Shown: positions 3,153-55,642, counted from the first letter of the stretch. The stretch is DNA of 64,000 bases from Centroscyllium fabricii (GCA_051313645.2 JBNRSN020000007.1:247132001-247196000), one strand, 5' to 3'. The notes: generated by a model from the letters alone, not told the origin. Program-made: numbers and translations.

Positions 3153-4257
3153 TTTAAAGTTTTAAATGTCGTGAACCTGGAGGACTCAAAAAAGGCTGCT
3201 TTCTGATTTGCTGATCCAATTACTGCTCCAGCTTCATTTAGAGGGGGAGGAGTGTTCTGGGGGGGGGGGGGGATTGTTGGTGATGGGAGGGGTCCTTTGA
3301 ATTTTTTCTCTGTGGGGTCTCACTTTTTTTGTTGGATGGGACATCTCCATTTTTTTGCGTGAATGGTGCTTTTTTTGTGTTATGGGAATGTTTGAATTTT
3401 GAATCCATTTGAAGTTTAAATTAGGACTTGCATTTCTGCAAAATACTGCAACCCACTCGCTGGGTTTACACTAGCATCCAGTTCCCAAAGGTTAGACGTT
3501 CTCATTTTCCATACTGACCAGACTGTTGCCTCTTTGAGTAAGGATACTAATTAGAAAAGAAAGCAGTACACAACCAATTAATTACTTTTGAAGAGCGATC
3601 ATTGTTACATAGGCATAGCCAAATTCAAGTTAGTTTTCAGTTGTGGTCTTGTGCTGACTTGGAACTGGATTGAGATTGTCCAAACTAATTTTATATTGAA
3701 TCCTTATAACCAAGCTAGTGGACAGAAGAGACTTTCTACCCCATTTATGTGGGTGTATTTATATAATCCCAGATGCATTGTTGGTTCTCAAATAACTTTC
3801 CTAAAATGAAATTTAATAAAGTTTATACTTCAAATGTGGAGCAAGCACAAGACTATATTTACCTTGTTTCTCTTTCCTCCCCCAGTTATTCTGACTCTAT
3901 ATGTAGTCTGGAAATTTGCAACATGATCATTCTTTCCTCCCCAAGCATAAATAAAGGTCCTGAATTTAGACCATGAAATACTAGCTAGCAAGCGGGCATT
4001 GTGCATTCATTTGAAATTCCCTTTTACTATTTTAGAACGGGTCTTGACCAAGTTAATTTAAGCAAGTTAATGCCTCTGCTGAACTAGCATAAAGAAGAAT
4101 TTCAGACTAATGCGAGTATTTCTTGGTGTGATTTTTTTTTTTTAGGGCCAACTTCTGAAGGATTCTCCCATGTATATTTTTCTTGGTTACATAATATTAT
4201 TGACTGCAATGTTAAAGCCTAGACTAAGTATATAGGTGCTGTAAAGGATTAGTAGTA

Positions 4258-4994
4258 CAGGTTGAGCACCAGTAATCCGTTACCCAAAAAACCGGCAGCT
4301 TCGAACGTCCGGCAATAATTCCCCCGACTGCGCCGCGAATGCGCAAAATGGCCGCCGCGATTGATGCTTCGGTGACTATGCGCAGATCAAACGATGAGCG
4401 CATGCGCAGATCATTCACTGGCCCTCTGAGCCCAGCCCTGCCTGTCCGAGCCCTGCCGGCCTCTCCGAGCCCCGCCCAGCCTCTCCCGAGTCCAGCCTCT
4501 CCAAGCCCAGCCCAGCCCCGCCTTTTCGAGCCCAGCCCCACCTCTCCGAGCCCCGCCCAGCACCTTCGAGCCCAGCCCCACCTCTCCGAGTCCAGCCCCG
4601 CCCGGCCTCTCCGAGTCCAGCCCCGCCCGGCCTCTCCGAGTCCAGCCCCGCCCGGCCTCTCCGAGCCCAACCTCGCCTCTCCAAGCCCAGCCTCGCCTCT
4701 CCACGTCCCGCTCCACCTCGCCAAGCCCAGCCTCTCTGAACCAAGCCTAGCCTCACCTCTTGGAGCACAGCCTCGCGCCTCCGAGCCCAACCTCGCCGGG
4801 CCTCTCCGAGGCGATCCCGGGCCTCCCCAAACGACAAGCGCATGCGCAGACCACTCAAAATGGCCGCCAGCCTTTCGCGGTGGCCATTTTGAATGGTCTG
4901 CGCATGCGCTCACCGAAGCTTCAATCATTCGGGATTTTCACTTTCCCGGCACGGGCCTGGTCCCGCTCGTGCCGGATTAACGGTGCTCAACCTG
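4258..4994. mobile_element. Tc1/mariner (Tigger/pogo-like) MITE with internal GC-rich minisatellite
   Basis: TA|CAGGTTGAGCACC ... GGTGCTCAACCTG|TA TIRs and TA TSD. Degenerate CTCTCCGAGCCCAGCC repeats at ~4420-4810. Confidence 0.9.
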
Positions 4995-5224
4995 TACTGG
5001 AATATACAGCGTTACTTGGGTTAATTGAACTCTTTCCCACTCACCCCTCCCCAATAATTGGCTGAACTGATGGGTTCAATCCACTGGTGGTGTCTAATGT
5101 TTCATTAAACACACATTGGAACAAGTAACTTGGTGTTAACAAATATAAAGTCTGTTTGGTATTTTCTGATGTTTACAGATAGTAAGTAAGTAAGTAGGCC
5201 CAATTGATACATTAACTGATATAA

Positions 5225-11400: not shown

Positions 11401-12365
11401 AAGTACCCTAGGATGTAGATTATCAGGCCCTGGGGATTTATCGGCATTCAATCCCATCAATTTCCCTACAAACACTGATTTCATTCAGTTCCTCCCTCTC
11501 ATTAGACCCTATGTTCCCTGACATCTCTGGGAGGTTATTTTTGTCCTCCTTTGTGAAGACAGAACCCAAGTATGTATTTAATTGGTCGGCCATTTCTTTG
11601 TTCCCCATTATAAATTCCCCCGATTTCTGACTGCAAGGGACCTACGCTTGACTTCACCAATCTTTTTTTCTTCACATATCTATAGAAGCTTTTACAGTCA
11701 GTTTTTATGTTCCCTGCAAGCTTTCCCCCTCTTAATTAATCCTTTTGTTTTCCTTTGCTGGATCCTAACTGCTCCCAATCCTCAGGTTTGCTGCTTTTTC
11801 TGACCAATTTATATGTGCTCTTCTTGGATCTTATGCTATCCCTAATTTCCCTTGTTAGTGACGGTTGCGCCACCTTGTTTTATTTTTATGCCAGACAAGG
11901 ATGAACAAATTCTGTAGTTCATCCATGCGATCTTTAAATGTTTGCCATTGCCTGTCCACCGCCAGCCCTTTAAGTAACATTCCCCAATCCATCCTAGCCA
12001 ACTCGTGGCTCATACCATCGTAGTTAACTTTATTTAAATCGGCATCATCAGAGCTAATATCTTTCCTTACGATTGTGTTACTCTCCTCTTTAACCAGCAA
12101 TGCTACCCCACCTCCTTTTCCTTTTTGCCTGTCCTTCCTGAATGTTGAATTCCCAGCCTTGGTCACCCTGGAGCCATGTCTTCGTAATCCCAACTATATC
12201 ATATCCATTCAGGGCGCGACTAAACCGCTTGCCCGGGGCAAGCAAAATGAGCCTTCGGGCAAGCAAAAGAAATTCGCACTTGCCCGACCGGGCAAGCGAT
12301 GTGCGGACATGACCCGAGCCTGCACAGTGGCCAGTTTCGGCAATAGCGCTGCGGGTGTGCGAGAG

Positions 12366-12790
12366 GGGGTGAAGAGGCGGACCGGCCGGCCGCGGGGTGA
12401 AGAGGCGGACCGGCCGGCCGCGGGGTGAAGAGGCGGACCGGCCGGCCGCGGGGTGAAGAGGCGGACCGGCCGGCCGCGGGGTGAAGAGGCGGACCGGCCG
12501 GCCGCGGGGTGAAGAGGCGGACCGGCCGGCCGCGGGGTGAAGAGGCGGACCGGCCGGCCGCGGGGTGAAGAGGCGGACCGGCCGGCCGCGGGGTGAAGAG
12601 GCGGACCGGCCGGCCGCGGGGTGAAGAGGCGGACCGGCCGGCCGCGGGGTGAAGAGGCGGACCGGCCGGCCGCGGGGTGAAGAGGCGGACCGGCCGGCCG
12701 CGGGGTGAAGAGGCGGACCGGCCGGCCGCGGGGTGAAGAGGCGGACCGGCCGGCCGCGGGGTGAAGAGGCGGACCGGCCGGCCGCGGGGT
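12366..12790. repeat. 28-bp GC-rich minisatellite, 15 copies
   Basis: Unit GGGGTGAAGAGGCGGACCGGCCGGCCGC; no variants seen by eye. Confidence 0.97.
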
Positions 12791-13264
12791 CACAGCCTAC
12801 AAAGCTTATTTTGGGTTATTCTGCTGTCCTGGTGTGTGTTTTTAACAATATGCTCGCCCCTCCTCTGCTGAAGCTGCAGGCTCCTGCTGGGTCCCAGATC
12901 CATAGCACCTTACCCCAGAGGTTATTCTTCAGGCTAATCAAACACAGAGTCTGATCTTGTCCCAACGTCCAGTCAAGAAGACTTGCCATCAGCTGTTATT
13001 AGATAGCAATCAGAGTTTGGCGGGGTGCGGGGGTAACTTGGTATGATTGTCACCCTCTTAGTCCATGGGGTGCTGAGGCCAATTGTAGCCCACCCTAACA
13101 CTTGCACCAGCTGAAATCAGCCAGCTCAACAGACTAGGAGTAGAACCTGGGATCATAGAAGATAGGAGCACGAGTAGGCGGGGTGAAGAAGCGGCGATGA
13201 AGAGGTGGTGAGCAGCGATGAAGAAGCGCTCTCCGTTGGTCATTTGGCCAGGCACTGCAGTCGA

Positions 13265-13383
13265 ATGGCGGGCCCCGGTTGGGGCCGGGGGTTGGCGCTG
13301 CTCTTCTGTCTGGCTGGAGCTGCTGCTGCTTGGGGAGTATGTGTCGGGGCAGTCCCGGGGTCAACGAGCGTTGAGGCTAATCG
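13265..13383 (+). pseudogene. captured first-exon-like fragment encoding a signal-peptide-like sequence (gene unidentified)
   Basis: ATGG start, MAGPGWGRGLALLFCLAGAAAAWGVCVGAVPGSTSVEANR, ending at consensus donor CG|GTGAGT (13384). GC-rich and inside the TIR element. Confidence 0.55.
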
Positions 13384-13593
13384 GTGAGTGCCGGGCCGGG
13401 CACACTATTATAGTACTTATAATACAAAAATATAGTACAAAAATAACAGATGGCCAGCCAATAAATTACCTGAATTAAATAGTTCTGATGTTTAAACCTG
13501 TGGTTGCAGTTTATTACATCATCAGAATCCTGCATGTCAAATACTGTCATATCTTCCTGCCATCCATCATTACCCAATATTTGTTTTTACAAA

Positions 13594-13960
13594 GTCATAG
13601 TCATAGCGTTTTACAGCACAGAAAGAGGCCCTTCTGCCCATCGCATCCGCACCGGCCATCAAACCCTTTCTATTCTAATCCCATTTTCCAGCATTTGGTC
13701 CGTAGCCTTGTATGCTATGGCATTTCAAGTGCTCATCCAAATGCTTCTTGAATGTTGAGGGTTCCTGCCTCTACCACCCTTTCAGGCAGCGAGTTCCAGA
13801 TTCCAACCACCCTCTGGGTGAAAAAGTTCCTCCTCAAATCCCCCCCTAAACTTCCTGCCTTTTACCTTGAAACTATGCCCCCTGGTTATTGATCCCCTCT
13901 ACTAAGGGAAAAAGTTCCTTTCTATCTATGCCCCTCATAATTTTGTACACCTCAATCAGA
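13594..13960 (-). mobile_element. CR1 3'-end fragment inside the cargo element
   Basis: Highly similar to the CR1 3' end at ~30603-30980 (CAGCACAGAAAGAGGCCCTT..CATTTCAAGTGCTCATC). Confidence 0.85.
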
Positions 13961-16900
13961 TCCAATAGTTATAGCAATACATATTCTTCAGTATATCTCT
14001 CTCCAAACTGTTTTTTAACCTATACCAGATCAGTGATGGGCAAGATTGATGGCAGACCTAAAAGGTACACTAACTACAATCACAATCTATGGCTTTATAT
14101 TGAAGCATTTTAATAAAAATGTAAAATCTTTATTTATTTCTTTAAAAATTTCGGGCAAGTGAAATTTGTGTTCGGGCAAGTGTTTTAGAAATCCACTTGC
14201 CCGACTGGGCATGTGGGGAAAAAAATAATTTGTAGCGCCCTGTCCGTTTACATCTATTTGCGCAGCTAATTCATCCACCTTATTACGAATGCTCCTCACA
14301 TTAAGACACAAAGCCTTCAGAGTTGTTTTTTTTAAACACTTAATCCTTTCAGAATTATTATTTACTGTGGCCCTGTTTGATTTACACCCTTGATTTCTCT
14401 ACCTTCCACTTTTGCTTTTCTCCTTCCTGTCTTTTGCTTCTATCCTTGCCCCCCTTTCCTCTGTCTCCCTGCCCACTGCTATTTTAGTTTAAACCCTCCC
14501 GAACAGTATTAGCAAACACTCCCCCTAGGACATCGGTCTCAATCCTGCCCAGCTGCATACCGTCCAGTTTGTACTGGTCCCACCTCCCCCAGAACCGGTT
14601 CCAATGTCCCAGGATTTTGAATCCCTCTCGCACCATTCCTTCTACTCTGACTAGCACGTGGCACTGGTAGCAATCCTGAGATTGCTACCATTGAGGTCCT
14701 ATTTTTTAATTTACCTCCTAACTCCCTATATTCAGCTTTTAGGACCTCAATCTGGTTTTTTACCTATATCGTTGGTACCTATGTACACTATGACAACTGG
14801 CTGTTCACCCTTCCCCTTCAGAATGCCCTGCAGCCGCTCCAAGATATCTTTGATCCTTGCACCAGGGAGGCAACATACCATCCTGGAGTCTCGTCTGCGG
14901 CCGCAGAAACGCCTATCCCCCTTAAAATAGAATCCCCCATCACTATAGCTCTCCCGCTTTTTCCTCCCGTCCTGTGCAGCAGAACCACCCATGGTGCCAG
15001 GAAGTTGGCTGCTGCTACCTTCCCCCAATAATCCATCTCCCCCAATAATTTCCAAAGCGGTATATGTTTGAGAGGGGGATGGCCGCAGGGGAACCCTGCA
15101 CTACTTGCCTGCGCCCACTACTCTGCCTGGCGGTCACCCATTCCCTTCCTGCTTGTGCAGCCTTTACCCACGTTGTGACCAACTCCCTAAACATGCTATC
15201 CACGACTTCCTCAGCATCGCGAATGCTCCAGTATGTATCCATTCGCAGCTCCAGCGTCTCAATGCGGTCTGCTAGTAGCTGCAGCTGGATACACCCTCCC
15301 GCACGCATGGTCGTCCGGGACACCGGAAGTGTCCCTGATTTCGCACATAGTGCAGGAGGAGCTTGCTACAGGGCCGAGCTGTGCGGCCATGACTTACCCT
15401 TTAATTAATTCAAATTAAATTAAATCAAACCAATACCACAAATTACACAAAAAATAAATGATATACTCAAGGGCCCTTGATTGCTAGCACTCCCCACGAC
15501 ACAACAGAGACCTTAGAAAGTATAAATCACAAAAGTTAAGTTTGTACACACCCATAGGGACATCGGAAATGCCGGTTTTAGACACGTGAAGCGCATGTGC
15601 TGAAAACCGGCATTTCGGGTCTGTCAAGAATGCTCCTGCCCTGGGGAAGAGCCTTTGCGGGTGGAGAGTTCCGCTTTTTGCAGAACTGCCGCCTGCTGAA
15701 AACCCTTGGAAGGCCTGCTTTTACCAGTATAAGAGTTGGAAAAAAGTTTTTTTTTTTTTAATTAGTTTTCGCTCATTTATAATTGAAAAAAAGTTTTTAA
15801 AAGGGGAAGTTTATTTTTAGCCCCGTAAAAACTTTAACTTTTTTTATTAAAAATTAAATTTTGTTTAATGTAATTTTAACTCATTTTCAAAATGTGATGG
15901 TTTTAAAAAAATGTATTTAGTGTTTTTTGGGGGTGATCGCCATTCATATATTTGACAGGTTTGTCAAAAGTATGAAGGGAGATTCCCTTCTCCTATTGGC
16001 TGGCCTGGCCCACGTGACCCCAGGGACGCTGCGAACTTCATGCGCCCCTGGGATACGTGGGCTCTGCGTATTTCGACTGGAGCGGCCCAGGAGCCCTCGG
16101 ATAAATTAGTCGATTTTTTTCCCGATAGGAGGCATCCACGCGCAGGAAGCCTCCTATCGGAAATTACGGGCCATTATTTAAAGTGGCAAGTCAAGGAGTT
16201 TCTTCGCCCCAAACCATTGAAAGTGTTTGTTTTTGCGTTTACTGCCCTTAATATAGGCAGACGGTAACGCAGATGTAAATGTTCTTCCTGATTTACAGGT
16301 ATTTACCTTTTTTTGTATTTTTTTTAAACTATTGATCTTAAATGTGTGTGTTTATACAGCACAACAAATGCAAGATTTAATTTAGGTCCATGCATATAGT
16401 TGGGTGTTGGAAGGTCTAAATAAGCAAGGGACATGAGGTTAGAAAATGTACTAAAGTGTAACTACAGCAGCAAAGTAGCTCCTTGCCACATAATTGGATA
16501 TTTGCACTCATTTGGGGAGATTTTCATGTCCCCATGAGGCGGGGTTTTCGGCGGCTCGGCCGGCAAAATACCGCAACCAGGGGGTTGCGATCCCCGCCGC
16601 TTTATCATTTTCCTCCCGCCCCAAAACCTTCTGCCGGCCGGCGGGGATGGATTGTCACCTCGTTAAGGGCCCTTAATTGGCATGTTTAATGCCATTTTAA
16701 GGGCCCTCAGCCATTTTGAGCTGTTTCCCGCCCTAACCCCGTCACCTTAAACCCCGCTGGGTCATTACATTCTCCTTCAAGGTGTGAAGGACCTGCTGCC
16801 AAATGCTTGGCATGCCTCCAGCACCTTTGAGGAATAAGTTACTCCGTTCTGTCTGCACCAGTTGTGAGCAAAAACTGAGAAATCTCCGCTCTGTACATTT

Positions 16901-17456: not shown

Positions 17457-20017
17457 AGGAGAGAGTGGCCCTAGGAGTCATCAACCTTGATTCCGGACCC
17501 CATGAAGTCTCGTGGCTTCAGGTCAAACATGGACAAGGAAACCTCCTGCTGATTACCACCTACTGCCCTTCCTCAGCTGATGAATCAGTACTCTTCCATG
17601 TTGAACACCACTTGGAAGAAACACTCCGGGTAGCAAGGGCACAGAATGTACTCTGGGTGGGGGACTTTAATGTCCATCACCAAGAGTGGCTCGGTAGCAC
17701 CACTACTGATCGAGCTGGCCGAGTCCTGAAAGACATAGCTGCCAGACTGGGCCTCTGCGGCAGGTGGTGAGAGAACCAACACTAGGGGGAAAAACCTACT
17801 TGACCTCGTCCTCACCAATCTACCTGTCGCAGATGCATCTGTCCGTGACAGCATTGGTAGCAGTGACCACCGCACAGTCGTTGTGGAGATGAAGACCCGT
17901 CTTCACACTGAGGACACCTTCCATCGTGTTGTGTGGCACTACCACCGTACTAAATGGGATAGATTCAGAACAGATCTAGCAGCTCAAAACTGAGCATCTA
18001 TGAGGCGCTGTGGGCCAGCAGCAGTATCAGAATTGTACTCCACCATAATCTGTAACCTCGTGGCTTGGCATATCCCTCACTCTACCATTGCCAGGGGTGG
18101 ACCAACCCTGGTTCAATGAGGAGTGCAGAAGAGCATACCAAGAGCAGCACCAGGCGGACCTAATAATGAGGTGCCAACCTGGGAAAGCTTCAACACAGGA
18201 CTACATGCATGCTAAACTGTGAAAGCAGCATGTTATAGACAGAACTAAGCGATCCCACAATCAACAGATCAGATCAAAGCACTGCAGTCCTGCCACATCC
18301 AGTCATTACTGGTGGTGGACCATTAAACAGCTAACAAGAAGAGGAGGATCCATGAATATACCCATCCTCCGTGATGTCTGAGCCCAACACGAGTGCAAAA
18401 GACAAGGCGTTTACAACCATCTTCAGCCAGAAGTGCCTGGTGGATGATCCATATCCGCCTCCTCCTGACGTCCCCACCATTGCACAAGCCAGTCCTCAGC
18501 CAATTCGATTCACTCCACGTGATATCAAGAAACGTCTGAGCGCACTGGATGCAGCAAAGGCTATGGGCCCCCGACAACATCCAGGCTGTCGTGCTGAAGA
18601 CTTGCACTCCAGAACTAGCCGCACCTCTAGCCAAGCTGTTCCAGTGCAGCTACAACACTGGCTGACAATGTGGAAAAACTGCCCAGGTATGTCCTGTCCA
18701 CAAAAAGCAGGACAAATCCAATCCAGCAAATTACCACCCCATCAGTCCACTCTCAATCATCAGCAAAGTGATGGAAGCTGTTGTCGACAGTGCTATCAAG
18801 CAGCACTTACTCACTAATAACCTGCTCACTGATGTGCAGTTTGGTTTCCGCCAGGACCACTTGGCTCCTACCTCATTATAGTCTTGGTCCAAACATGGAC
18901 AAAAGAGCTGAATTCCAGAGGTGAGGTGACCGTGACTGCTCTTGACATCAAGGCAGCATTTGACCGAGTGTGGCATTAAGGAGCCCTAGTAAAACTGAAG
19001 TGAATGGGGATTGGGGAAAACTGGCTGGAGTCATATACAAAAGAAGATGGTTGCGGTTGTTGGAGGTCAATCATTTCAGCTCCAGGCCATGGCTGCAGAC
19101 ATTCCTGGCCCAACCATCTTCAGATGCTTCATCAATGACCTTCCCTCCATCATAAGGTCAGAAGTGGGGATGTTTGCTGATGATTGCACAGTTTTCAGTT
19201 CCATTCGCAACTCCTCAGATAATGACGCAGTCCATGCCCGCATGCAGCAAGACCTGGACAAGATTCAGGCCTGAGCTGATGAGTGGCAAGTAACATTTGC
19301 GCCACACAAGTGCCAGGCAATGACTATCTCCAACAAGAGAGAGTCTAACCACCGCCCCATGACACTCGACGGCATTACTATCATTGAATCCCCCAGCATC
19401 AACATCCTGGGGGGTCACCATTGACCAGAAACTTAACTAGAGCAGCCACATAAATACTGTGGCTACAAGAGCAGGCCAGAGGCTGGGTATTCTGCAATGA
19501 GTGTCTCCTTTCCTGACTCCCCAAAGCCTTTCCACCATCTGCAAGGCACAAGTAAAGAGTGTATTGGAATGCTCTGTACTTGCCTGGATGAGTGCAGTTC
19601 CAGCAACACTCAAGAAGCTCGACACCATCCAGGACAAAGCAGCCCGCTTGATCGGAACCCCATCCACCACCTTTAAATATTCATTTCCTGCACCACTAGC
19701 GCACCGTGGCTACAGTGTGTACCATCTACAAGATGCACTGCAGCAACTCGCCAAGGCTTTTTTGACAGCACTTCCAAAACCTGCGACCTCTACCACCTAG
19801 AAGGACAAGGGCAGCAGGTGCCTGGGAAAACAATCACCTGCAAGTTCCCCTCGAAGTTACATACCATCCTGACTTGGAAATATATTGCCGTTCCTCCTTC
19901 ATCGCTGGGTCAAAATCTTGGAACCCCTCCCTAACAGTACTGTGGGACTACCTTCACCGCAAGGGCTGCAGCGGTTCAAGAAGGCAGATCACATCCCAGA
20001 AACGAATATAAAAAAAC
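17457..20017 (+). mobile_element. degenerate CR1-group LINE ORF2 (subfamily distinct from the other CR1 copies)
   Basis: EN motif VLWVGDFNVHHQEWLG; RT motifs FINDLP..MFADDCTVF and KKLDTIQDKAARLI; multiple stops. Confidence 0.8.
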
Positions 20018-21443
20018 CAATGCAAGTTGTATTATTGGTTCCTTTTCACTATTTTCTTTCCTAATATGTACTGCTTCACATTTCTCTACATAGGTCTGTC
20101 ATCTATGTTCGTACTCCATTAATCTTTCTTTCTTCCTATATCTTGCATTTTTCCTTAGAGTTTGCCATGTCTAATTTGGTATCAATAGATATGAACATAA
20201 TTCCTCTTATCTTTTGTCCAAATCATTTTTCTAAATGAAAAGCAGAAGATTCCCCATCAGAGATGGTGTATTGCAGAATTGTGTAACACAGTGTGGGATA
20301 TCAATCTCTTTTCAACAAAGTAAATTCTTGATCTGAGGTAGAGAAAATTGGAGGGCAAGTTGATTCATGCTGCTTTTGCATAGTTGGCAGCGTGTGGAAG
20401 CCTAGCAATGGGTTGCAGCAGTGCCCTTGACATTGGTGAATGACACACATGCAACAAAGAAATGCTGTTTTAGTTAATGGTGATTGATTTCACATTGTCC
20501 ATGCTGCCTTCCAGGAGCGGAAAGCCAAAATGTAAGTCCCTGTACTAGGCATTTGGTTCACGAATGAGTACTAGCATTATCAGCGCCATTTGTGCATAAC
20601 ATGCCTTCGAAGAACATTGTGGCCTTAGCTGCGGTTATTCTTGATGCAGGTGTGTGATATATCCATCCACACCCAACACCTTTTTGTTTCTGAAAATTGG
20701 ATACATTTGCATTTGTTAATGTGACTAACTGGTATATGATTCTCTTATTAAAGATACATCAGCATTTTATTGAGGTGCAGTGGTCCAACATGTTAGCACG
20801 AGCCAATTTTACCCCTTCTATGTTTCATTCCCCTCATTCTTCTAAACTCCAGCAGGGCGCGATAAAACCGCTTGCCCGGGGCAAGCAAAATGAGCCGAAG
20901 GGCAAGCAAAAGAAAATCGCACTTGCTCAACCGGGCAAGTGCAAAGTATTTCACATTGGCGACGGATACGGGTGGGTGGATCCCGCCCTGGAGGCGGGTG
21001 CGGAGTGGGGGGGGGGGCGTGCGGCTCGGCGGGGATTGGAGGAGGCGGCGTGTCAATCGGGAGGAGCAGCAATCAAGTTAGGTGGAGCGGGCTGGTAGAA
21101 CGTGGCAAGAGTGGGTCGGTAATAATAGCAGAAAGTGCTGGGGGGGTGGGGGGCTCGGCGGGCCGGGCACCACCGGTGGAGAGAGGTGTGGAGTTGACGT
21201 TTCGGGTTGGGACCCTTTGAGGGGCGCTGGGATTCCTGCTCCTCCAGGCAGCTGGGAGTGTCCGAGCGCCGGGTTCAATCCCTTTGTGAGGTTCAGGTCC
21301 CCGCTGAAGAGTTTTTTGTGTGTGAGGTTACATAAACCCATTGAGAGAATGCGGTTTAAAAGTTAATCTTGATTGGGGGGGGGTCCCAACCCAAAACACA
21401 ACTCTGTGTTTCTCTCCACCGATGCAGCAGCGGGTGGGCTCGC

Positions 21444-21536
21444 CATGATGTGAATGTCCTTGCTGAGTCTCCGCTGCGGTTTATGCCTCCTGATGACGGC
21501 CTGCAAGCTGCTCCGGGGAACCGCGCGCTTCACCAT
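21444..21536 (-). pseudogene. CENPW: captured CENP-W-like first coding exon
   Basis: GCCCGCCATGG Kozak, MVKRAVPRSSLQAVIRRHKPQRRLSKDIHIM resembles the vertebrate CENP-W N-terminus (chicken-type MRRTVPRGTLRKIIKKHKPHLRL, from memory). Similarity stops at a phase-0 donor-like GCGAGC. Confidence 0.7.
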
Positions 21537-22363
21537 GGCGGGCGCTCGGGACCCGCCCATTTAAAACTCTGCGCCAGCCACCGCGCCCTGAAGTCACAGA
21601 CACCCCGCCCCGTCGTGCAGGAGTCGCGCAGAGTGAGTGTTGATGTTCAGTACATGATTAATAATTACTCGCAGCAAAATTGGCTTAACTGTTTGAAGGT
21701 TCTAAATCGTCTCCCTGCTTAGTGTTTTTAATGTTTTGTATAACCATTTCAACATTTTTTTTTTAAAAACAACTTACCTTTCAATAAACAAATTGTTCTT
21801 GCAACTTTTAACGAAATTAATCAATGTAAAAATCTATAAGAATGTGGGACTCGCTTGTAGTTAAACATAGAAACATAGAAACATAGAAGATAGGAGCAGG
21901 AGTAGGCCATTTGGCCCTTCGAGCCTTGATGCAAATAGCATTGATGCAGTTAATGGGAAGCTAGGTAAGTATGCAAGGGAGAAAGGAAAAGAAGGTTATG
22001 TTGATCGGATGAGATGAAAAAGAGTTGGGAGGAAATAACAACAGAAAATGCTGGAAAAACTCAGCAGTTCAGGCATATCGATAAAGAGTCCCGACCCGAA
22101 ACATTGACTCCTACTTCTCTCTTACGGATGTTGCCTGAACTGCTGAGTTTTTCCAGCATTTTCTGTCGTTATTTCGGATTTCCAGCATCTGCCGTATTTT
22201 GCTATCGTACAAGAGTGGGTCGGTGCCGTCGACCCGCTGAGGGGGAGAGAAAAAACCGGAGCGGCTTCTGAGAAGAAAAAAAACCAACAACAGCTCGGTC
22301 TTTATTCTTTCGATCAATTATAAAATCTTTATATTTTCCCCCTCTGAGGAGTAATTATAAAGA

Positions 22364-22605
22364 ATGGTGGGGGAAATGGAAGTGAGGGAGAAGCCGAGAC
22401 CCAGTCCCGAGGTGGGGGGGGGGTGAATGGGAGTGAAGGAGAAGCCGAGACCCAGTCCCGAGGGAGGGGGGTGGAAATGGGAGTGAAGGAGAAGCCGAGA
22501 CCCGGTCCCGACTATTTGATGCAGCTGATGAATGACAAGAAGCTGATGTCGAGTCTGCCCAACTTTTGCGGCATCTTCACCACCTGGAGCGGCTGCTGGA
22601 CGAAG
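22364..22605 (+). pseudogene. QKI: captured, disrupted QKI (Quaking) exon 1
   Basis: [37 protein letters not shown] then, after a 1-nt frameshift, HLERLLDE and a phase-1 donor G|GTAGG (22606). The 5' part is triplicated, and the frame from ATG 22364 hits TGA. Confidence 0.9.
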
Positions 22606-23212
22606 GTAGGCGGGGAGAGAGAGTGAGGGAGCCCGCGGCCTGCGGAAGCTTCACAAAGTTTGGAAGAGACAAACGAAGAAATGGAGTGAATGCTTGAGGA
22701 AATAGATTTTTGAAAAGACTTTTAAAGGTGGAATAGGATGGAGAGGCCAATAGTGTTAGGGCGAGAGGGGCAGAAACCGGGCCAATGCAACTAAAGGCAC
22801 AATCACAATCTATGGCTTTATATTGAAGCATTTTAATAAAAATGTAAAATCTTTATTTAAAAATATCGGGCAAGTGAAATTTGTGTTCGGGCAAGTGTTT
22901 TAGAAATCCACTTGCCCAGAATTTTTTTTTTTTGTGGCACCCTGCTCTAGGGAATATCGGCCCAGTCTACTCAATTTCTCCTCCTAAGACAATCCCCCCA
23001 TCCCAGGAATTCTTCCTCCCCTTTACAAAAAAGTTTGTTCTTTTTATGAAGTTTATGAAATAATGGATTATTTTAATTCAATCTACTGCAATAGCAAACG
23101 AATCTACACCCTTTAGATGACATTATTACATATAATATACAGCACAGGAACAGGCCATTCAGCCCAACCAGTCCATGCTGGCATTTATGCTCCACTCAAG
23201 CCTTCTCCCTCA

Positions 23213-23598: not shown

Positions 23599-24498
23599 TA
23601 TGCTTATCTAGCTTCCTGTAAAATGCCTCAACTACTCCCTTATTATCTGCCATAGTTTGCATGTTCACATTTGAAAGTTTGACTCTTTGATACCAATTGG
23701 ATTTTTCCAACACCTACTGGTGCTGCTCATCCCACCATTGTATAATTTTGTAAAAATTCTGTTATCAAACGAAAGCTGAATGAGGCACTGGTTGTTAATG
23801 TTGCTGCATTTATAACACCTATGTTTTGTATCTAGTGAAAAGGTGAGAGTTGGTTTGTGGCTTTGGCCTGCCACTGAACTCTGACAAGGACCAAAGATAT
23901 TGGCCGGAATTTTGCCGGCCCTCAGGGCGGGTTTGGAAGTGGGACCTCTGGCAAAATTGCAAAGATTGACCAGGCAGGAAACCGCTGTCAACTCCCCTCC
24001 AATCAATCTTCCCAAGTGTCGGGTCCCCGATTTACACATGGACCCAACACCTAGCAGCGGGAAGAGGATTATAGCCACTTAACTGCCTTTTAACAACCTT
24101 TAACAGACAGTTAACAGGCTCTTTTTCAATTTTGATACTTCTACTTCAGGCTTCCCGATGTCTGGACACCACGCCAGGTAAGTGTGGTGTGTTGTGAGTC
24201 TGCTGTAATGTTTCTACATTGATCCAAAGATGTGCGGGTTAGGTTGATTGGCCATGATAAATTGACCCTTAATGTTAGGGGGATTTAATATGTGGGGTTA
24301 CGGGGATAGGGTGGGATATATGTGTCAGTGCAGGCTCGATAGGGATCGAGGGATATGGGGAGAGGGCAGGGACGGGGTACTGAGTTTGGATGATCAGTCA
24401 TGATCTCATTGAATGGCGGAGCAGGCTCGAAGGGCCGAATGGCCTACTCCTGCTCCTATCTTCTATGTTTCTATAACAGCTGCAGAAATGGTGTAAAG

Positions 24499-24822
24499 CA
24501 GCGGTCCCCAACCTTTTTTGTTCCGCGGACCATTTTGAGCTAGACAATTTTTTCACGGACCGGGGAGGGGGGGTGCTCGGGGCGGGTGGGGGGGGAATCA
24601 AGCGTTAAACGAGGCACAGACGGAAGCGGTCCAAAAAAAGCGTCGTAATTTAAACGAGGCACAGACGAAAGCAGTCCAAAAAAAGCGTTGTAATTTAAAC
24701 GAGGCACAGACGGAAGCGGTCAAAAAAAAATTTATTGACTCAATAAAATAAAAATTAAAACGCTTTCTTCATTCCTTCCGCGGCCCGGTACCGGTCCGCG
24801 GCCCGGCGGTTGGGGACCCCTG
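24499..24822. mobile_element. hAT-Charlie (MER1-like) MITE
   Basis: TIRs CAGCGGTCCCCAACC / GGTTGGGGACCCCTG; perfect 8-bp TSD GTGTAAAG; internal ~45-bp unit x3 (24604-24730). Confidence 0.9.
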
Positions 24823-25571: not shown

Positions 25572-28500
25572 AAGAAATTTCTCCTCATCTCTGTCCTAAA
25601 TGGCTTACCCCTGATCCTTAGACTGTGACCCCTGGTTCTGGACTCCCCGGCCATCGGGAACATCCTTCCTGCATCTCGCCTGTCTAGTCCTGTTAGAATT
25701 TTACAAGTTTCGATGAGATCCCCTCACATTCTTCTAAACTCCAGCGAGTATAAGCCCAATCGACCCAATCTCTCCTCATATGTCATTCCTGCCATCCCAG
25801 GTATCAGTCTGGTGAATCTTTGCTGCGCTCCCTCCATGGCAAGAACATCCTTCCTCAGATAAGGCGACCAAAACAGCACACCATACTCTAGGTGTGGTCT
25901 CTCCAAGGCCCTGTACAATTGCAGCAAGACATCCTTGTTCCTGTACTCGAATCCTCTCACTATGAAGGCCGACATACCGTTTGCCTTCTTAACCACCTGC
26001 TGCTTACCTTCAGCGACTGGTGCACAAGGACACTCCGGTCTCGTTGCATTTCCCCTTCTCCCAATCCATTGCCGTTCAGATAATCTGCCTTCCTGATTTT
26101 TTCACCAAAGTGGATAACCTCGCATTTATCCACATTATATTGCATCTGCCATGCTTCTGCCCAATCACCCAACCTGTCCAAATCATACTGGAGTTTCTCT
26201 GCATCCTCCTCACAGCAAACAACCCCACCCAGCTTTGTGTCGTCTGCAAACTTGGAGATATTACATCTTGTTCCCTCGTCTAGATCATTAATATATATTG
26301 TGAATAGCTGGGGTCCCAGGACCAATCCCTGCGGTACCCCACTAGTCACTGCCTGCCACTCGGGAAAAGACCCCTTTATTCATCAGTGGTAGGGAAATTA
26401 TTGGAAAAAATTCTGAGGGATAGAATTAGTAGTCACTTGGAGGGACAAGGATTAATCAAGGATTGTCAGCATAGCTTTGTCAATGTCTGACCAACTTGAT
26501 TGAATTTTTCGAGGGGGGTGATTAGGTGTGTGGATGAGGGTAGTGCAGTGGATGTGGTATACTTGGTTTTCAGTAAGGCTTTTGATAAAGTCCCGCATAG
26601 GAGACTGGTCAAGAAGGTAAGAGCCCATGGGATCCAGGGCACCTTGGCACAGTGGATCCAAAACTGGCTTAGTGGCAGAAGGCAGAGGCTGATGGTCGAA
26701 GGTTGTTTTTGTGGCTGGCAGCCTGTGTCCAGTGGGGTACCGCAGGGATCAGTGCTGGGTCCCTTGCTGTTTGTAGTCTATATTAATGATTTGGATATGA
26801 ACGTAAAGGGTATGATCAGTAACTTCGCTGATGACACAAAAATTGGTGGGGTGGTGAATAGTGAGCAGTGAAGCCTCCGTCTGCAGGATGATATAGATGG
26901 GTTGGTCAGATGGCCAGAGCAGTGGCAAATGGAATTTAAGTCTGAAAAGTGTGAGGTGGTGCATTTTGGAAGGACTAACAAGGCAAGGGCATACACAATG
27001 AATGGTAAGACCCTAAGAAAGACAGAGGATCAGAGGGACCATGGTGTGTATGTACATGGATCCCTGAAGGCAGCAGGACAGGTAGATAAGGTGGTTAAAA
27101 AGGCATATGGGATACTTGCCTTCATTAGCCGAGGCATAGAATATAAGAGCAGGGAGGTTATGATGGAGCTGTACAAAACGCTGGTAAGGCCACAGCTGGA
27201 ATACTGTGTGCAGTTCTAGTCACCACACTATAGGAAGGTGTGATTGCCTTGGAGAGGATGCAGAGGAGATTCACCAGGATGTTACCTGGGCTGGAGCGCT
27301 TCAGCTATGAAGAGAGACTGGACAGGCTGGGGTTGTTTTCCTTTTGAGCAGAGAAGGCTGAGGGGGGACCTGATTGAGGTGCACAAAATTATGAGGGGCA
27401 TAGATAGGGTAAATAGAAAGGAATGTTTTCCCTTGGTAGAGGGGTCAATAACAAGGGTGCATAGTTAAGGGGCAGGAGGTTTAGAGGGGATTTGAGGAGG
27501 AACGTTTTCACCCAAAGGGTGGTTGGAGTCTGGAACTCACTGCCTGAAAGGGTGGTGGAGGCAGGAACCCTCACAACATTCAATAAGCATTTGGATGAGC
27601 ACTTGAAGTGCCATAGCATACAAGGCTACGGACCAAATGCAGGAAAATTGGATTAGAGTAGACAGGGCTCGATGGCCGGCACAGATCCGATGGGCCCAAG
27701 GGCCTCTTTCTGTGCTGTAAAACTCTATGACTGTATTCCAACTCTTTGCTTCCTGTCTGCCAACCAGTTCTCTATCCAAGTCAGTACCTTGCCCCCAGTC
27801 GCATGTTCCTTAACTTTACATGCTAATCTCTTATGCGGGACCTTATCGAAAGCCTTCTGAAAGTCCGAATAGACCACATCCACTGGTTCTGCCTTATCTA
27901 TTTTACCAGTTACATCCTCAAAAAATTCCAGTAGATTAGTCAAGCATGATTTACATTTTGTAAATCCACGTTGACTTTGTCCGATCCTGTCACTGTTTTC
28001 CAAGTGTTCTGCTACAGGGTATTACATGTTTTATAATGGACTCTAGCATTTCCCTGCTACCGATGTCAGGCTTACAATTCTCCACTTTCTCTCTACCACC
28101 TTTTTTGAAAGAGGGGTAACTTTAGCTACCCTCCAATCTATGGGAACTGTTCCAGAGTCTATCGAATTTTGGAAGATGACCAGCACTGCATCTACTATTT
28201 TTAGGGTCACTTCCTTAAGTACCCTAGGATGTAGATTATCAGGCCCTGGGGATTTATCAGCCTTCAATCCCGTCAATTTCTCTAACACCATTTCCCTACA
28301 AAGACTGATTTCTTTCAGTTCCTCCCTCTCATTAGACCCTATGTTCCCTGACATCTCTGGGAGGTTATTTGTGTCCTCCTTTGTGAAGCCAGAACCAAAG
28401 TACTGTATGTATTTAATTGGTCTGCCATTTCTTTGTTCTCCATTATAAATTCCCCTGATTCTGACTGCGAGGGACCTACGCTTGATTTCACCAATCTGTT

Positions 28501-30602: not shown

Positions 30603-32449
30603 CATAGATTCATAGAGTTATACAGCACAGAAAGAGGCCCTTCGGCCCATCGCGTCCGCGCCAACCATCAAGCCCTGTCTATTCTAATCCCATTTTCCAG
30701 CATTTGGTCCGTAGCTTTGTATGCTATGGCATTTCAAGTGCTCATCTAATTGCTTCTTGAATGTTGTGAGGGTTCCCGCCTCCACCACCCTTTCAGGCAG
30801 TGAGTTCCAGATTCCAACCACCCTCTGGGTGAAAACGTTCTTCCTCAAATCCCCTCTAAACCTCCCGCCCCTTACCTTGAAACGATGTCCCCTTGTTATA
30901 GACCCCTCTACTAAGGTAAAACGTTCCTTTCTATCTACCCTATCTATGCCCCTCATAATTTTGTACACCTCAATCAGGTCCCCCCTCAGCCTTCTCTGCT
31001 CCAAGGAAAACAACCCTAGCCTGTCCAGTCTTTCTTCATAGCTGAAGCGCTCCAGCCCAGGTAATATCCTGGTGAATCTCCTCTGCACCCTCTCCAAAGC
31101 AATCACATCCTTCCTATAGTGTAGCGACCAGAACTGCACACAGTACTCCAGCTGTGGCCATACCAGCATTTTGTACAGCTCCATCATAACCTCACTGCTC
31201 TTATATTCTGTGCCTCAACTAATGAAGGCAAGTACAGGTTGAAAACCATTAATCAGGCACGGGCGGGACCAGGACCACGTCGGTATAGTGAAAAAGCCGG
31301 AAGAATGAAGCCATCCAGTGCGCATGCGTACACCATTCAAAATTGCCGTGCGCATGCGCAGAACATTGGAAATGGTCGTCGCGAAATTTTGAATGATCTA
31401 CGCATGCGCCGCCGAACGGCGAGCACATGCGCAGATCATGCAATATGGCCGCCGCGAAGTTCTGAATGATCTGTGCATGCGTTCGGCGCATGCGCAGATC
31501 ATTCGCCGAAGCATCAATCCGGCCATTTTGCGCATGCGCAAGGCAGTCAGGGCAATTTATGCCGGACGACTGAAGTTGCCGGCTTTTCGGTTACCGGATT
31601 AACGGTCTTCAACCTGTATCCCATATGCCTTTTTAACCACCTGTCCTGCTGCCTTCAGGAATCTATGTACATGCACACCAAGGTCCCTCTCATCCTGTCT
31701 TTCCTAGGGTCTTACCATTCATTGTGTATTCCCTTGCCTTGTTAGTCCTTCCAAAATGCATCACCTCACACTTTTCAGGGTTAAATTCCATTTGCCACTG
31801 TTTCGCCCATCTGACCAACCCATCTATATCGTCCTGCAGACTGAGGCTTCCCTCTTCGCTATTTACCACCCCACCAATTTTCGTGTCATCAGCGAACTTA
31901 CTGATCATACCTTTTACATTCATATCCAAATCATTAGTGTGGACTACAAACAGCAAGGGACCCAGCACTGATCCCTGCGGGACCCCACTGGACTTCCAGT
32001 CACAAAAACAACCTTTGACCATCACCCTCTGCCTTCTGCCACTGAGCCAGTTTTGTATCCAGTGTGCCAAGGTGCCCTGGATCCCATGGGCTCTTACCTT
32101 CTTGACCAGTCTCCTATGCGGGACTTTATCAAAAGGTTTACTGAAATCCATGTATACCACATCCACTGCACTACCCTCATCCACACACCTAGTCACCCCC
32201 TCGAAAAGTTCTAATCAAATTGGTCAGACATGATCTTCCCTTGACAAAGCCATGCTGATTATCCTTGATTAATCCTCGCCTCTCCAAGTGGAGACTTATT
32301 CTGTCCCTCAGAATTTTTTCCAATAATTTCCCTACCACTGATGTTATCACTGGCCTGTAATTCCCTGGTTTATCCCTACTACCCTTCTTGAATAATGGTA
32401 CTACATTAGCTGTTCTCCAGTCCTCTGGCACATCCCCTGTTGCCAGAGA
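30603..32449 (-). mobile_element. 5'-truncated CR1 nested in L2
   Basis: RT ORFs 30684-31187, 31690-32196 and 32189-32431; GCTCCT on both sides. Confidence 0.9.
31235..31616. mobile_element. Tc1/mariner MITE (same family as 4258) nested in CR1
   Basis: TA|CAGGTTGAAAACC ... GGTCTTCAACCTG|TA. Confidence 0.9.
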
Positions 32450-42819: not shown

Positions 42820-44928
42820 TTAGAGGTGTGGCTGACCTGACCCCGCGACAGTGTCGCAATACAAAGCTGTGTATAGTGCACCCAGCCGCGACACATGCTG
42901 GTTAATATTGTGCAACAATATTACGGTGGTAATAGGCATTATATAACGGTTACCATATTCACCCCTTCTTTGAAAATTAAGTCCGGCGGGGTGAATGGGC
43001 AGAGCAGTGGAGGGGAGGGGGCCTTTGAAGTCCACGCTTAGACGTTCAAAGGGGCGGGTGGCCTTAATGAGGTGTGGCGTGTCTGGCCTGTAAAATTGGG
43101 GTTTGCACTCAGCGCAAACAGGGCACTCTCGGGTCATATCCTTGATCTCCGAGATGGGGAGGCTACGGGATTTAACGAAATGGGCAAGTCTGGTGATACC
43201 CGGGTGGCAGAGGCGATCGTGGAGTTCCTTCAGCCGGTCTAACTGGGCACTGGCGCACATTCCCCTGGACAGTGCATCCGGGGGTTCATTGAGTTTGCCT
43301 GGTCGGTAAATAATGTCGTACTCGTAAGTCGAGAGCTCGATCCGCCACCGCAGGATCTTATCATTCTTGATTTTACCCTTTTGTTTATTGTTAAACATAA
43401 ACGCGACCGACCGTTGGTCGGTGAGCAGGGTAAAACGCTTACCGGCCAGGTAATGACGCCAGTAGCGCACGGCCTCCACGATGGCCTGGGCCTCCTTTTC
43501 CACTGCAGAGTGGCGAGTTTCGGGTCCCTGTAGGGTGCGGGAGAAAAACGCTACGGGCCTGCCTGCCTGATTCAGGGTGGCGGCAAGGGCAAAGTCCAAA
43601 GCGTCACTCTCCACCTGGAAAGGGATGGACTCATCAACGGCGTGCATGGTCGCCTTGATAATATCTTCCTTGATCCGGGCGAACGCCGTGTGGGCTTCTA
43701 TCGACAGGGGGAAGATGGTGGCCTTGAGGAGCGGTCTGGCCTTATCCGCGAACTGGAGAACCCATTGCACGTAATAAGAGAAAAATCCCAGACATCTCTT
43801 CAGGGCTTTGGGGTTGTGAGGAAGGGGCAGTTCCTGTAAGGGACACATACGCTGTGGGTCGGGGCCAAAGACCCCGTTTTCCACCACGTATCCGAGGATG
43901 GCGAGCCGATCTGTACTAAAGACGCACTTATCTTTATTGTACGTGAGATCGAGCCGTTTCGCCGTGTGGAGAAATTTGGCCAGGTTGGCATCGTGGTCCT
44001 GCTGGTCATGGCCGCAGATGGTCACGTTGTCCAGGTAGGGGAAAGTAGCCTGCAACCCGTTCTGGTCAACCATGCGGTCCATCTCCCTCTGGAATACCGA
44101 CACTCCGTTGGTCACGCCGAAGGGGACCCGGAGGAAGTGGTAGAGCCGACCGTTCGCCTCGAAGGCGGTGTACGGGCGATCGGCTTTCCGGATCGGGAGC
44201 TGGTGATACGCCGACTTAAGGTCGATTGTGGAGAACACCTTGTACTGGGCGATCTGGTTAACCATTTCCGAGATGCGGGGAAGGGGGTAGGCGTCGAGCC
44301 CGGTGTAGCGGTTAATGGTCTGGCTGTAGTCGATCACCATTTGCTGTTTCTCGCCAGTCTTAACCACTACGACCTGGGCCCACCAGGGGCTGGTGCTGGC
44401 TTCAATTATCCCCTCCTTCAGCATACGCCCGACCTCCGACCTGATAAATGTCCGATCCCCTGCACTGTAACGCCGACTCTTCGTAACAATGGGTTTGCAG
44501 TTTGGGTCGAGGTTGGCGAACAGCGAGGGGGGGTCGACTTTCAGGGTGGAAAGGCCGCAAGTCGGGCTCCGCTTTAAGAAGGGATTGTCCCGGCTACTGA
44601 CGGTGAGGGGGGCCAGGGTCCCGCCGAACTCCATTGTCACGCTCTTCAGGTGGCACTGGAAATCCAGTCCCAGTAAGACTGGGGCGCACAACTGCTGGAG
44701 TATGTACAATTTAAAGTTACGGTACACGCAGTGCCTGACTGTGAGCGTGACGGAGCAGTAGCCGGTGACGTCCGCCGTGTGGGACTTTGAAGCAAGGGAG
44801 ATTTGGTAGTGCGTGGGCAGGGTCTCCAGTCCGTAGCGCCGCACTGTGTCAGGGTGAATGAAGCTCTCTGTGCTTCCGGTGTCGAACAGGCAGTTGGTGA
44901 TATGGCCGTTAACTTTAATCCCCATCAT
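42820..44928 (-). CDS. pol: Gypsy Pol (protease, RT, RNase H, integrase N-terminus), running into the internal LTR
   Basis: LFDTGS protease, YLDNV RT motif, RNase H (VESDA, EKEAQA, TDQRS), HHCC; integrase breaks after SVDFKGPLPS (~43005). IN C-terminus resumes at 42247-42656. Confidence 0.9.
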   Translation of the reverse strand: MMGIKVNGHITNCLFDTGSTESFIHPDTVRRYGLETLPTHYQISLASKSHTADVTGYCSVTLTVRHCVYRNFKLYILQQLCAPVLLGLDFQCHLKSVTMEFGGTLAPLTVSSRDNPFLKRSPTCGLSTLKVDPPSLFANLDPNCKPIVTKSRRYSAGDRTFIRSEVGRMLKEGIIEASTSPWWAQVVVVKTGEKQQMVIDYSQTINRYTGLDAYPLPRISEMVNQIAQYKVFSTIDLKSAYHQLPIRKADRPYTAFEANGRLYHFLRVPFGVTNGVSVFQREMDRMVDQNGLQATFPYLDNVTICGHDQQDHDANLAKFLHTAKRLDLTYNKDKCVFSTDRLAILGYVVENGVFGPDPQRMCPLQELPLPHNPKALKRCLGFFSYYVQWVLQFADKARPLLKATIFPLSIEAHTAFARIKEDIIKATMHAVDESIPFQVESDALDFALAATLNQAGRPVAFFSRTLQGPETRHSAVEKEAQAIVEAVRYWRHYLAGKRFTLLTDQRSVAFMFNNKQKGKIKNDKILRWRIELSTYEYDIIYRPGKLNEPPDALSRGMCASAQLDRLKELHDRLCHPGITRLAHFVKSRSLPISEIKDMTRECPVCAECKPQFYRPDTPHLIKATRPFERLSVDFKGPLPSTALPIHPAGLNFQRRGEYGNRYIMPITTVILLHNINQHVSRLGALYTALYCDTVAGSGQPHL

Positions 44929-45000
44929 GGAATTTGATAGGGTGTGCGGCTTAGCCTGGTCGACCGTGGCTGAGGCCGAAGTGTGTGTGGGGGCCCTCCG

Positions 45001-46203: not shown

Positions 46204-47163
46204 TTCGAAAATTTTAAGTGATTAAAATTGACGTATCGTCAATAAGACAATGATGAGTAGTTACCTTAACTAGAGGCTTTTAATCACTTTACAATGGAGC
46301 TACTCTCCAGTCGAACATTGAGTACAGAATGAATGGGGACAGGTCAGACCTAGCCTATAAGGCACTCACCTGAGGGGAGGAGTTAGAGGTGTGGCTGACC
46401 TGACCTCGCGACAGTGTCGTTATACAAAACTATATACAATGCACCCAGCCACTATACATGCTGGTCTGTAGTGTGCTCAACTATATACACTGGTAATCAT
46501 GATTACCACAACACACTCCCAGGATTCCGCTGTAAATATTGACAAAGTATGGGGAACCACATTCCTAATTTGTATTTATTTCACTGCCATTTTTTGGACA
46601 TTCATTTCAAATAAGTGTATATTTGTAAGACTGTAACATTTACTAGACCTGTTGCATAAGAGAGTTTTTTGCACAGCTGCCTTGGCAGCATGGGTTGGAG
46701 CTCCTCAACTAGGTTCTCGCTCCTGCTACTAATAGTTTTAACGTGGCCCTTGCAGGGCGTGGAGGGATCTGAAGGATGAAAAAGCTACTTAACTTTCTGC
46801 AATGTTGAGCATCCTTCAAACACAGTGATCTCTCTCCTCCCAACAATCCCTTTAGGCCCTACTCTGGTTTCTTTTGGGGTTGGTTTGGGATATTAAGGTG
46901 AAGATCACAGTGATAAATGCACAGATTAATGTGATAAACTATAATCTGTGCATTTATCACTATCACAGAAATTAGCTTCAGTCAAAAATAAAATGGAAAT
47001 TGAAAGTGGCATTGTAGAAAGAAATATCCCAAGCTTTCAGTTTGGGTTTTCTCAAAGTTTTGACTACAAGGTGAAGTTTTCTTTTTCTGTTCCTCTTGGG
47101 AGGAGAAAGAATATGTCTCTGTGCACTCTCTTGTTTTACTTTACAGTAATGTGTTTTTTTCAT

Positions 47164-48296: not shown

Positions 48297-48754
48297 CAGG
48301 CTGAACACCGTTAATGCGGCAGGGTCGGGACCAGCACCCTGCCGAATTGTTGAAAACGCCGAATGATTGAAGCTTCAGCGGCGCATGCGCAGATCATTCA
48401 AAATGGCGGCCGCAAAACTTTGAATGGTCTGCGCATGCGCTTACCATTCTGTGGCGCATGCGCAGATCATTCTAAATGGCCGCCGCGAAGTTTTGAATGG
48501 TCTGCGCATGTGCTCGCCATTCGGCGCCGCATGCGCAGATCATTCACCGAAGCATCAATCGTTCGGGGAGGCCCGGGCATGCGCAGCCAAGCACGGCAGC
48601 CATGTTGCGCATGTGCAGACCAGTCGGGGAGGCCCGGGCATGCGCAGCCACACGCGGTGGCCATTTTGCGCATGCGCAGGGCAGTCGAGGAAATTGTCGC
48701 CGGACGTTTGAAGCAGCCGATATTTCGGGTAACGGATTAACGGTGCTCAGCCTG
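48297..48754. mobile_element. Tc1/mariner MITE (4258 family)
   Basis: TA|CAGGCTGAACACC ... GGTGCTCAGCCTG|TA; GCGCATGCGC arrays. Confidence 0.9.
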
Positions 48755-55480: not shown

Positions 55481-55642
55481 TATTTATTTCTGCCAAGTTC
55501 TGGCAGAAGTTCCATTTTGTATTTCTTTTTGTCTAATTTTTCTAGCTAGATTAATGGGTAGCAGCAGACCCAGCTGCATCTGAAAAGAGAAATGACAGGT
55601 GCACACATTAACCTTTTTTCGAACTGGAATGTATTTGCAGTA

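Follow-up and report, generated by a model that had tools for sequence, protein, structure and literature searches.

Two gene starts within one transposable element

A stretch of 64,000 nucleotides from Centroscyllium fabricii (GCA_051313645.2 JBNRSN020000007.1:247132001-247196000, hereafter the window) contains a non-autonomous element of 2,092 bp with terminal inverted repeats (TIRs), element 1, at positions 20853-22944. It encloses exon 1 of CENPW on the minus strand and exon 1 of quaking on the plus strand. An earlier note on this DNA had proposed CENPW as a second donor gene in the same element as a quaking fragment, and both are indeed found within 20853-22944. A sister, element 2, lies 6.6 kb away. 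The outer features are as follows.

20847-20852, unstranded: left target-site duplication (TSD) of element 1 (CTCCAG), inside a CR1 relic; 5/6 identical to the right copy
20853-20939, plus: left end of element 1, 79/87 identical to element 2; imperfect TIR and subterminal CTTGCCCG motifs
22799-22944, plus: right end of element 1, 118/119 aligned positions identical to element 2; TIR
22945-22950, unstranded: right TSD of element 1 (CTCTAG), in the split CR1
12210-14242, plus: element 2, with ends as in element 1, a 6-bp TSD (TCCATT/TCCGTT) and unrelated cargo; splits a CR1 reading frame

The element boundaries were set by the common ends and the split CR1s, because a generic scan for TIRs with TSDs gave too much noise to be of use. 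When aligned to two intact CR1 copies, the flanks of element 1 share exactly 6 columns; those of element 2 duplicate two codons of the CR1 frame. The 6-bp TSD is verified in this way in 2/2 copies, each 5/6 identical. Both elements have imperfect TIRs of 13-14 bp that start with CAGGG (CAGGG..CCCTG), and all 11 CTTGCCCG sites in the window fall within their four ends (1.6 expected). Their interiors are unrelated. With ends of one family, a TSD and host gene sequence inside, element 1 has the anatomy of a Pack-TIR.

Short TIRs beginning with CAGGG fit hAT ends. The 6-bp TSD of both copies, together with these TIRs, resembles hAT6, the hAT group with 6-bp TSDs (PMC12730594, in part). The hAT6 label denotes likeness only, because no hAT transposase domain is found among the window ORFs scanned. 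Two other groups with 6-bp TSDs were rejected: IS3EU needs ends of the type TAYGG..CCRTA, and GingerRoot needs TA..TA or TG..CA ends with TIRs of 100-150 bp. A small hAT-like MITE at 24499-24822 forms a contrast to the 6-bp family: its TSD is 8 bp long and perfect (GTGTAAAG), and its interior holds three 45-bp repeats.

The cargo of element 2 includes a GC-rich unit of 28 bp in 15.2 identical copies (12366-12790), after which ~390 bp seemingly interrupt GC-rich sequence. It also holds an exon-1-like ORF (13265-13383) that is signal-peptide-like and ends at a GTGAGT donor; an alternative reading in a second frame, with a phase-1 donor, is conceivable. This ORF is possibly a third captured gene start. 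Neither the ESM Atlas nor Pfam gives it an identity, and none of the 76 candidates compared reaches E 10 or better.

CR1, other LINEs and Gypsy-like ORFs abound in the window as a whole, 43% of which is covered by internal repeats. No host gene was found among 150 of the 153 remaining unique ORFs of at least 58 aa, which yield only LINE domains and one weak Pfam match to CD59 (23668-24078, E 0.0018, without PDB support). An exon-like stretch with a good acceptor at 23718-23831 (minus strand) overlaps the CD59 match and is probably due to chance; two splice-site scans of the window gave no convincing exon chain. Long Gag/pol-like ORFs at 42820-46221 (minus) and 60388-62215 (plus) were read by eye as relics of Gypsy-type LTR retrotransposons, and two CR1-like copies at 26403-27736 and 30604-32321 form a long inverted pair, ~91% complementary. 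A repeat family rich in TGCGCATGCGCA, with GC-rich internal tandem repeats, occurs at ~4224-5065, 31249-31590, 48294-48855, 55415-56054 and 56712-57243 and is likely a non-autonomous DNA transposon.

Identity of the CENP-W-like exon

21444-21536, minus: CENPW exon-1 coding sequence, orphan, 31 codons (Pfam, PDB, ESM Atlas); no exon 2 found in ~21 kb downstream
21438-21443, minus: GC-type or decayed splice donor GCGAGC, phase 0; boundary as in zebrafish cug2
21537-21610, minus: Kozak context, GC boxes and CHR-like and CDE-like candidate motifs; CHR variants after PMC4176359 (in part)

On the minus strand a strong Kozak context (GCCCGCCATGG, ATG at 21536-21534) opens a frame of 31 codons (21536-21444) that encodes the peptide MVKRAVPRSSLQAVIRRHKPQRRLSKDIHIM. 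GCGAGC follows directly after codon 31, in phase 0 from position 21443; read past it, the frame reaches a stop after 57 codons. Start context, peptide and GCGAGC are thus all present at 21536-21438, as the earlier note had described.

Comparison of the 31-aa peptide with the 24,736 families of Pfam shows CENP-W as the sole family matched (E 0.015, profile positions 13-38), at a score weaker than the curated gathering cut-off. In the PDB search the best four of six matches are CENP-W (E 0.0023-0.016) and the remaining two are Sleeping Beauty PAI (E 0.17 and 0.45). Neighbours of the peptide in the ESM Atlas are N-termini of histone folds and serve as leads; the CENPW cluster itself reaches only 0.79. 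Pfam and PDB both choose CENP-W, and the reading as exon 1 of CENPW origin, together with promoter-proximal sequence, is supported. A word-index search of proteins of 31-100 aa gave no homologue of the peptide, and phmmer gave none at E 0.001 or better over 1.84 billion representatives. Such blank results are weak evidence because a query of 31 aa is too short; as both searches were blank, the shark CENP-W parent was not retrieved.

The window piece corresponds to the N-terminal 31 residues of CENP-W/CUG2 (PF15510) up to the end of exon 1, and the remaining histone fold (exons 2-3) is missing from it. Residue 31 of the peptide aligns to residue 42 of human CENP-W in the PDB alignment; exon 1 of human CENPW has 42 codons. 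In the same alignment a leucine common to chicken and human CENP-W is R in the window peptide. A morpholino against exon 1 of zebrafish cug2/CENP-W gives the exon end as TTG ATG, followed by GTGAGT with an immediate in-frame stop (PMC3171718, in part). In the window ATC ATG (I-M) precedes GCGAGC where zebrafish has L-M and GTGAGT, in phase 0 and at an equivalent place, with a difference of 1-2 residues from the residue count of the zebrafish paper. The exon-1 boundary suggested earlier therefore agrees with the zebrafish cug2 donor, as far as that source goes. The GC donor at 21443 scores only 1.4 bits on a rough splice matrix.

For exon 2 we scanned 149 of the 157 other minus-strand ORFs of at least 36 aa in 1-21443 (the 8 omitted are CR1 or tandem-array frames). 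None of the 149 matches CENP-W, which the control did; two reach comparable scores against other families. Neither exon 2 nor exons 2-3 of CENPW are found in the ~21 kb downstream within the window. The CENP-W exon is an orphan and likely a dead copy of a gene start.

Sequence upstream of the CENP-W start codon

The earlier note had also pointed to TTTAAA beside GGGCGG upstream of the ATG. Both are located, at 21560-21565 and (minus strand) 21553-21558, 17-30 nt 5' of the ATG, and GC boxes occur at 21553 and 21605. TTTAAA is a genuine CHR variant in mammals (PMC4176359, in part), but taken alone it is uninformative because it occurs 61 times in the window. A CDE-like GGCGC (21571-75) lies 4 nt upstream of TTTTAA, a distance equal to the CDE-to-CHR spacing of 4 nt given in PMC3287175 (in part). 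The window has two sites of this kind, this one included, against 0.33 expected; two sites are reached in 3 of 100 shuffles, for a pattern that was defined post hoc from the site seen. CpG o/e is 0.96 at 21453-21652.

Two further observations concern the same strand. An upstream in-frame ATG at 21560, overlapping TTTAAA, would lengthen the CENP-W-like peptide by 8 residues. Some 240 bp upstream of the CENPW ATG, an exon-like stretch of 56 nt (21778-21833) ends at a consensus donor AAG/GTAAGT at 21777; it is one of four such donors in the window and may be due to chance.

The quaking fragment

20940-21105, plus: promoter-like segment, GC-rich and CpG-rich, with an ATTGG box and GC boxes; putatively of quaking
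22225-22363, plus: putative quaking 5'UTR, unique sequence just before the quaking ATG
22364-22605, plus: quaking (likely quaking-A) exon-1 coding sequence, orphan; STAR_dimer E 2.4e-9, PDB quaking E 1.2e-15
22606-22798, plus: putative start of quaking intron 1, unique sequence following the donor

The first ~50 nt of the quaking exon are triplicated, a 1-nt frameshift is present near 22579, and a GT donor follows at 22606. Later quaking exons are not found in the window with tblastn. To the left, 20940-21153 shows a GC content of 0.64 and a CpG o/e of 1.0.

All three quaking repeats read KPRP. For comparison, 35 named records were chosen from 120 listed of 383 matches, a table without a shark QKI orthologue. 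Among the matches listed, the KPRP-type R is present in 6/6 chondrichthyan records of quaking-A or quaking-like, tetrapods have KPKP in 11/11 records, and teleosts are mixed (R in 10/18, including several quaking-B records). Skate quaking-A is, again among the matches listed, nearest to the first repeat (13/16). At the GIFNH site of the QKI orthologue, the T/N position in the window is blurred by the frameshift. On these residues, and with a table without a shark QKI orthologue, the fragment is likely quaking-A rather than the orthologue of the gene at human 6q26. The paralogue qkia was lost in tetrapods (PMC4699748, in part), and linkage on human 6q is therefore probably inapplicable. The argument of the earlier note from the joint location of CENPW and QKI on human 6q is accordingly unsupported: with KPRP as in chondrichthyan quaking-A, it probably concerns the wrong gene.

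A nested, probably separate insertion in the quaking segment

The CENPW exon belongs to a block of 1,089 bp (21121-22209) that is nested in the quaking segment and bounded by an exact direct repeat of 15 bp. The features of the block, and of two related copies elsewhere in the window, are listed below.

21106-21120, unstranded: left copy of the 15-bp direct repeat, exact (15/15)
21121-21218, plus: P1L, degenerate inverted pLTR-like arm without the ~35-nt tail, at the left end of the block (by alignment)
21375-21430, minus: P1R, second degenerate arm, ~10 nt into the CENPW intron; 78% over 45 nt to P1L
21863-21926, minus: CR1 3' tail relic inside the block, 81-98% to other window copies; tandem tail unit
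22032-22209, plus: P2, young palindrome with the ~35-nt tail at its end, at the right end of the block; arms 43/44 complementary
22210-22224, unstranded: right copy of the 15-bp direct repeat, exact (15/15)
1980-2166: solo pLTR-like copy with exact 16-bp flanking repeats and a minimal hammerhead-like motif at 2109
53405-53503: solo pLTR-like copy with exact 11-bp flanking repeats

An exact repeat of at least 15 bp occurs in 2 of 500 composition-matched local shuffles. The ends of the block are outward-facing arms of one palindromic repeat family and abut both copies of the 15-mer. P1L starts within ~3 nt of the start of two other tail-less arms, and the right arm terminates in the tail. P1L is 74-75% identical to other family copies and 58-67% to the P2 arms. 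Exact flanking repeats are also present in two of the three other family copies tested (16 and 11 bp). For P1 taken alone there is no flanking repeat, and for P2 taken alone none longer than 6 bp. At ~22019 a sequence matching the 15-mer in 10/15 positions could be taken for a TSD of P2 by itself; we rejected it, since the P2 arms are 98% complementary while this site is far more decayed. A 14/15 match to the 15-mer at 17681-17695 lies inside a LINE endonuclease frame and has unrelated flanks.

In structure the family follows the Penelope pLTR hallmarks of inverted arms and an optional tail of 30-40 bp (PMC3846280, in part; PMC11167929): it has inverted pLTR arms, an optional tail at one end and a TSD of variable length. 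Minimal hammerheads occur in Penelope pLTRs (PMC4209133). A hammerhead descriptor of our own gives a single match in the window, at 2109 in a family copy, where it folds no more stably than shuffled sequence (z 0.8), and the motif has decayed in the block's own arms; Rfam reports no hammerhead, nor anything else, in the window. No Penelope ORF (RT plus GIY-YIG) is found among the window ORFs scanned. By its structure we describe the family as likely Penelope pLTR-like.

Having its own 15-bp duplication and Penelope-like ends, the CENPW block appears to have entered the quaking segment as a separate insertion. It probably interrupts a single quaking 5' region, because a promoter-like CpG-rich stretch lies on its left and the quaking ATG follows after 139 nt on its right. 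Removal of the block would likely restore one quaking promoter, 5'UTR and exon 1, and since excision likely restores one 5' end in this way, the likely order of capture is quaking before CENPW. The capture in sequence that had been suggested is thus in agreement with the nesting, whereas local hopping from one chromosome is unsupported, given the block's own duplication and Penelope-like ends. The divergent arrangement of CENPW and quaking described in the earlier note is a by-product of nesting and not a shared promoter.

Proposed origin and alternative explanations

The reading that we favour, with a probability of about 0.55, is that CENPW was copied into the TIR element by a Penelope-type RT acting in trans on arms that would flank the 5' end of the parental gene. 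In a first step the hAT6-like element would have taken up ~1 kb of quaking(-A), from the promoter through exon 1 into the beginning of the intron, forming a Pack-TIR. The anatomy of this step is directly visible; as to mechanism, the quaking 5' end may have been acquired through the gap-filling or template-switch routes of Pack-TIRs (PMC8277862, in part). For a second step, two pLTR palindromes are postulated at the parental CENPW gene, an old one where intron 1 begins and a young one that precedes the ATG by ~500 bp. Together they would act as two outward-facing start sites of reverse transcription. Unspliced sense and antisense transcripts of the CpG island between the arms would then have served as template, and the copy would have entered the quaking segment at a cut with a stagger of 15 nt. 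Here the boundaries are visible and the mechanism is a proposal; promoter and intron would have been carried along because the transcripts copied between the arms were unspliced. A further step, which may have preceded or followed the second, is seen directly: a CR1 relic holds the whole 2,092-bp element, flanked by the 6-bp duplication.

The block, which ends at the tail on one side and at a tail-less point on the other, with unspliced cargo between them, fits the Penelope cases of anole and rotifer. The low identity of P1L to the P2 arms implies that the block is not the remnant of one young insertion; as the TSD is nevertheless perfect, the CENPW locus likely carried both palindromes before the transfer. 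Against a Penelope route counts the composition of the 15-mer target (60% GC), unlike the preference of anole Penelope for AT-rich targets (PMC11167929).

The alternative that survives best, although we consider it unlikely, is gap repair: a single pLTR palindrome inserted into quaking with a 15-bp TSD and later suffered a break, during the repair of which a template switch to related arms flanking CENPW copied the DNA that lies between those arms. Palindromes are fragile DNA. The order of capture would be unchanged and no RNA step would be needed for the cargo, while TSD, both pLTR ends, promoter and intron are all accounted for; moreover, Pack-TIRs in animals arise chiefly by gap filling (PMC8277862, in part). 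The difficulty is that P1L is unlike the young P2 arms from the first 20 nt and that the TSD is 15/15, so that the switch would have to occur exactly at the edge.

Chances are smaller still that the TIR element captured first quaking and then CENPW within a single chromosome, through local hops or gap filling, with the 15-bp repeat due to chance or microhomology. Such a history would be in keeping with animal Pack-TIRs, which draw their cargo from the same chromosome in 59.8% of cases (PMC8277862, in part), and with the nature of both cargos, gene starts of high GC content like those in Pack-MULEs of rice (PMC6839031, in part). However, the null rarely yields such a 15-bp repeat, and each of its two copies meets a pLTR boundary. 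In addition, the quaking piece looks like quaking-A instead of the 6q26 orthologue, and the sister element 6.6 kb away holds unrelated cargo.

We regard it as highly improbable that the exon is live, with a natural GC-AG intron and exons 2-3 beyond window position 1. Its frame is open, its Kozak context strong, its CpG o/e 0.96 and its CDE/CHR-like site intact; yet it is enclosed by two nested TSD pairs in a CR1 relic, beside a frameshifted quaking exon, with a weak donor and no exon 2 in 21 kb. A chance match or another histone-fold protein in place of CENPW is just as improbable, for despite a Pfam match under the cut-off, two of the 149 other ORFs that score as well and two large blank searches, Pfam and PDB both choose CENP-W, the match runs from the ATG to the point at which exon 1 ends in zebrafish, and upstream of the ATG lies a promoter motif of the cell-cycle type.

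Neither CENP-W nor quaking protein can be made from this window alone. At most the cassette is predicted to give a short or antisense RNA, or to splice to something outside, and the fragment is probably inert and without function.

Comparison with known capture systems

Capture by TIR elements and copying by Penelope are both already known. Among animals, 370 Pack-TIRs have been found (Tan et al. 2021); they have a median length of 224 bp, are rare and mostly single-donor, and were mostly made in place in old elements. The elephant shark, the sole cartilaginous fish screened, gave none in that study (all PMC8277862, in part). Like these, the window element holds non-TE gene sequence between the TIR ends of one family and has a TSD. 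It differs from them, as far as described there, in that the cargo fills nearly the whole interior, that two donors and a nested insertion are involved, and that two family members with different cargo lie within 9 kb. Mutator elements have long TIRs and a 9-bp TSD. With rice Pack-MULEs the element shares a size of ~2 kb and a cargo of GC-rich 5' gene ends (PMC6839031, PMC8277862, both in part), whereas it has short TIRs, a 6-bp TSD and an animal host.

For the nested block the nearest parallel is Adineta vaga (Arkhipova et al. 2013), in which intron-containing host genes were moved in trans between pLTRs, with a TSD (PMC3846280, in part). The features in common, as far as described there, are host DNA with introns that is flanked by direct pLTR arms, an inverted arm on one side, a tail on the opposite side, the TSD, and the absence of internal Penelope sequence. 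In contrast to the rotifer, the window is of a vertebrate and holds a promoter and first exon instead of a whole gene; its ends are arms of different age, and the landing site is the cargo of a DNA transposon. In anole, Penelope insertions end at two reverse-transcription start sites that delimit a tail of 30-40 bp (PMC11167929). Neither the nesting of the two processes, nor Penelope-type capture of host genes in a vertebrate, nor capture elements of sharks were found in print in our search, the scope of which was the literature outside Repbase and most subscription sources.

Implications

Two cargo-bearing copies of one family within 9 kb suggest that the family is common and Pack-MULE-like. 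Screens for retrocopies would miss Penelope-type copies such as the one proposed here, because promoter and intron are retained. As a tentative suggestion, which we hold to be doubtful though conceivable, cartilaginous fish may have a relay in which Penelope lifts modules of promoter and first exon from CpG islands between outward-facing pLTR relics, and the hAT6-like non-autonomous family, being abundant, collects and spreads them; some of these cassettes may still start transcripts. If true, such a relay would be a vertebrate counterpart of Pack-MULEs.
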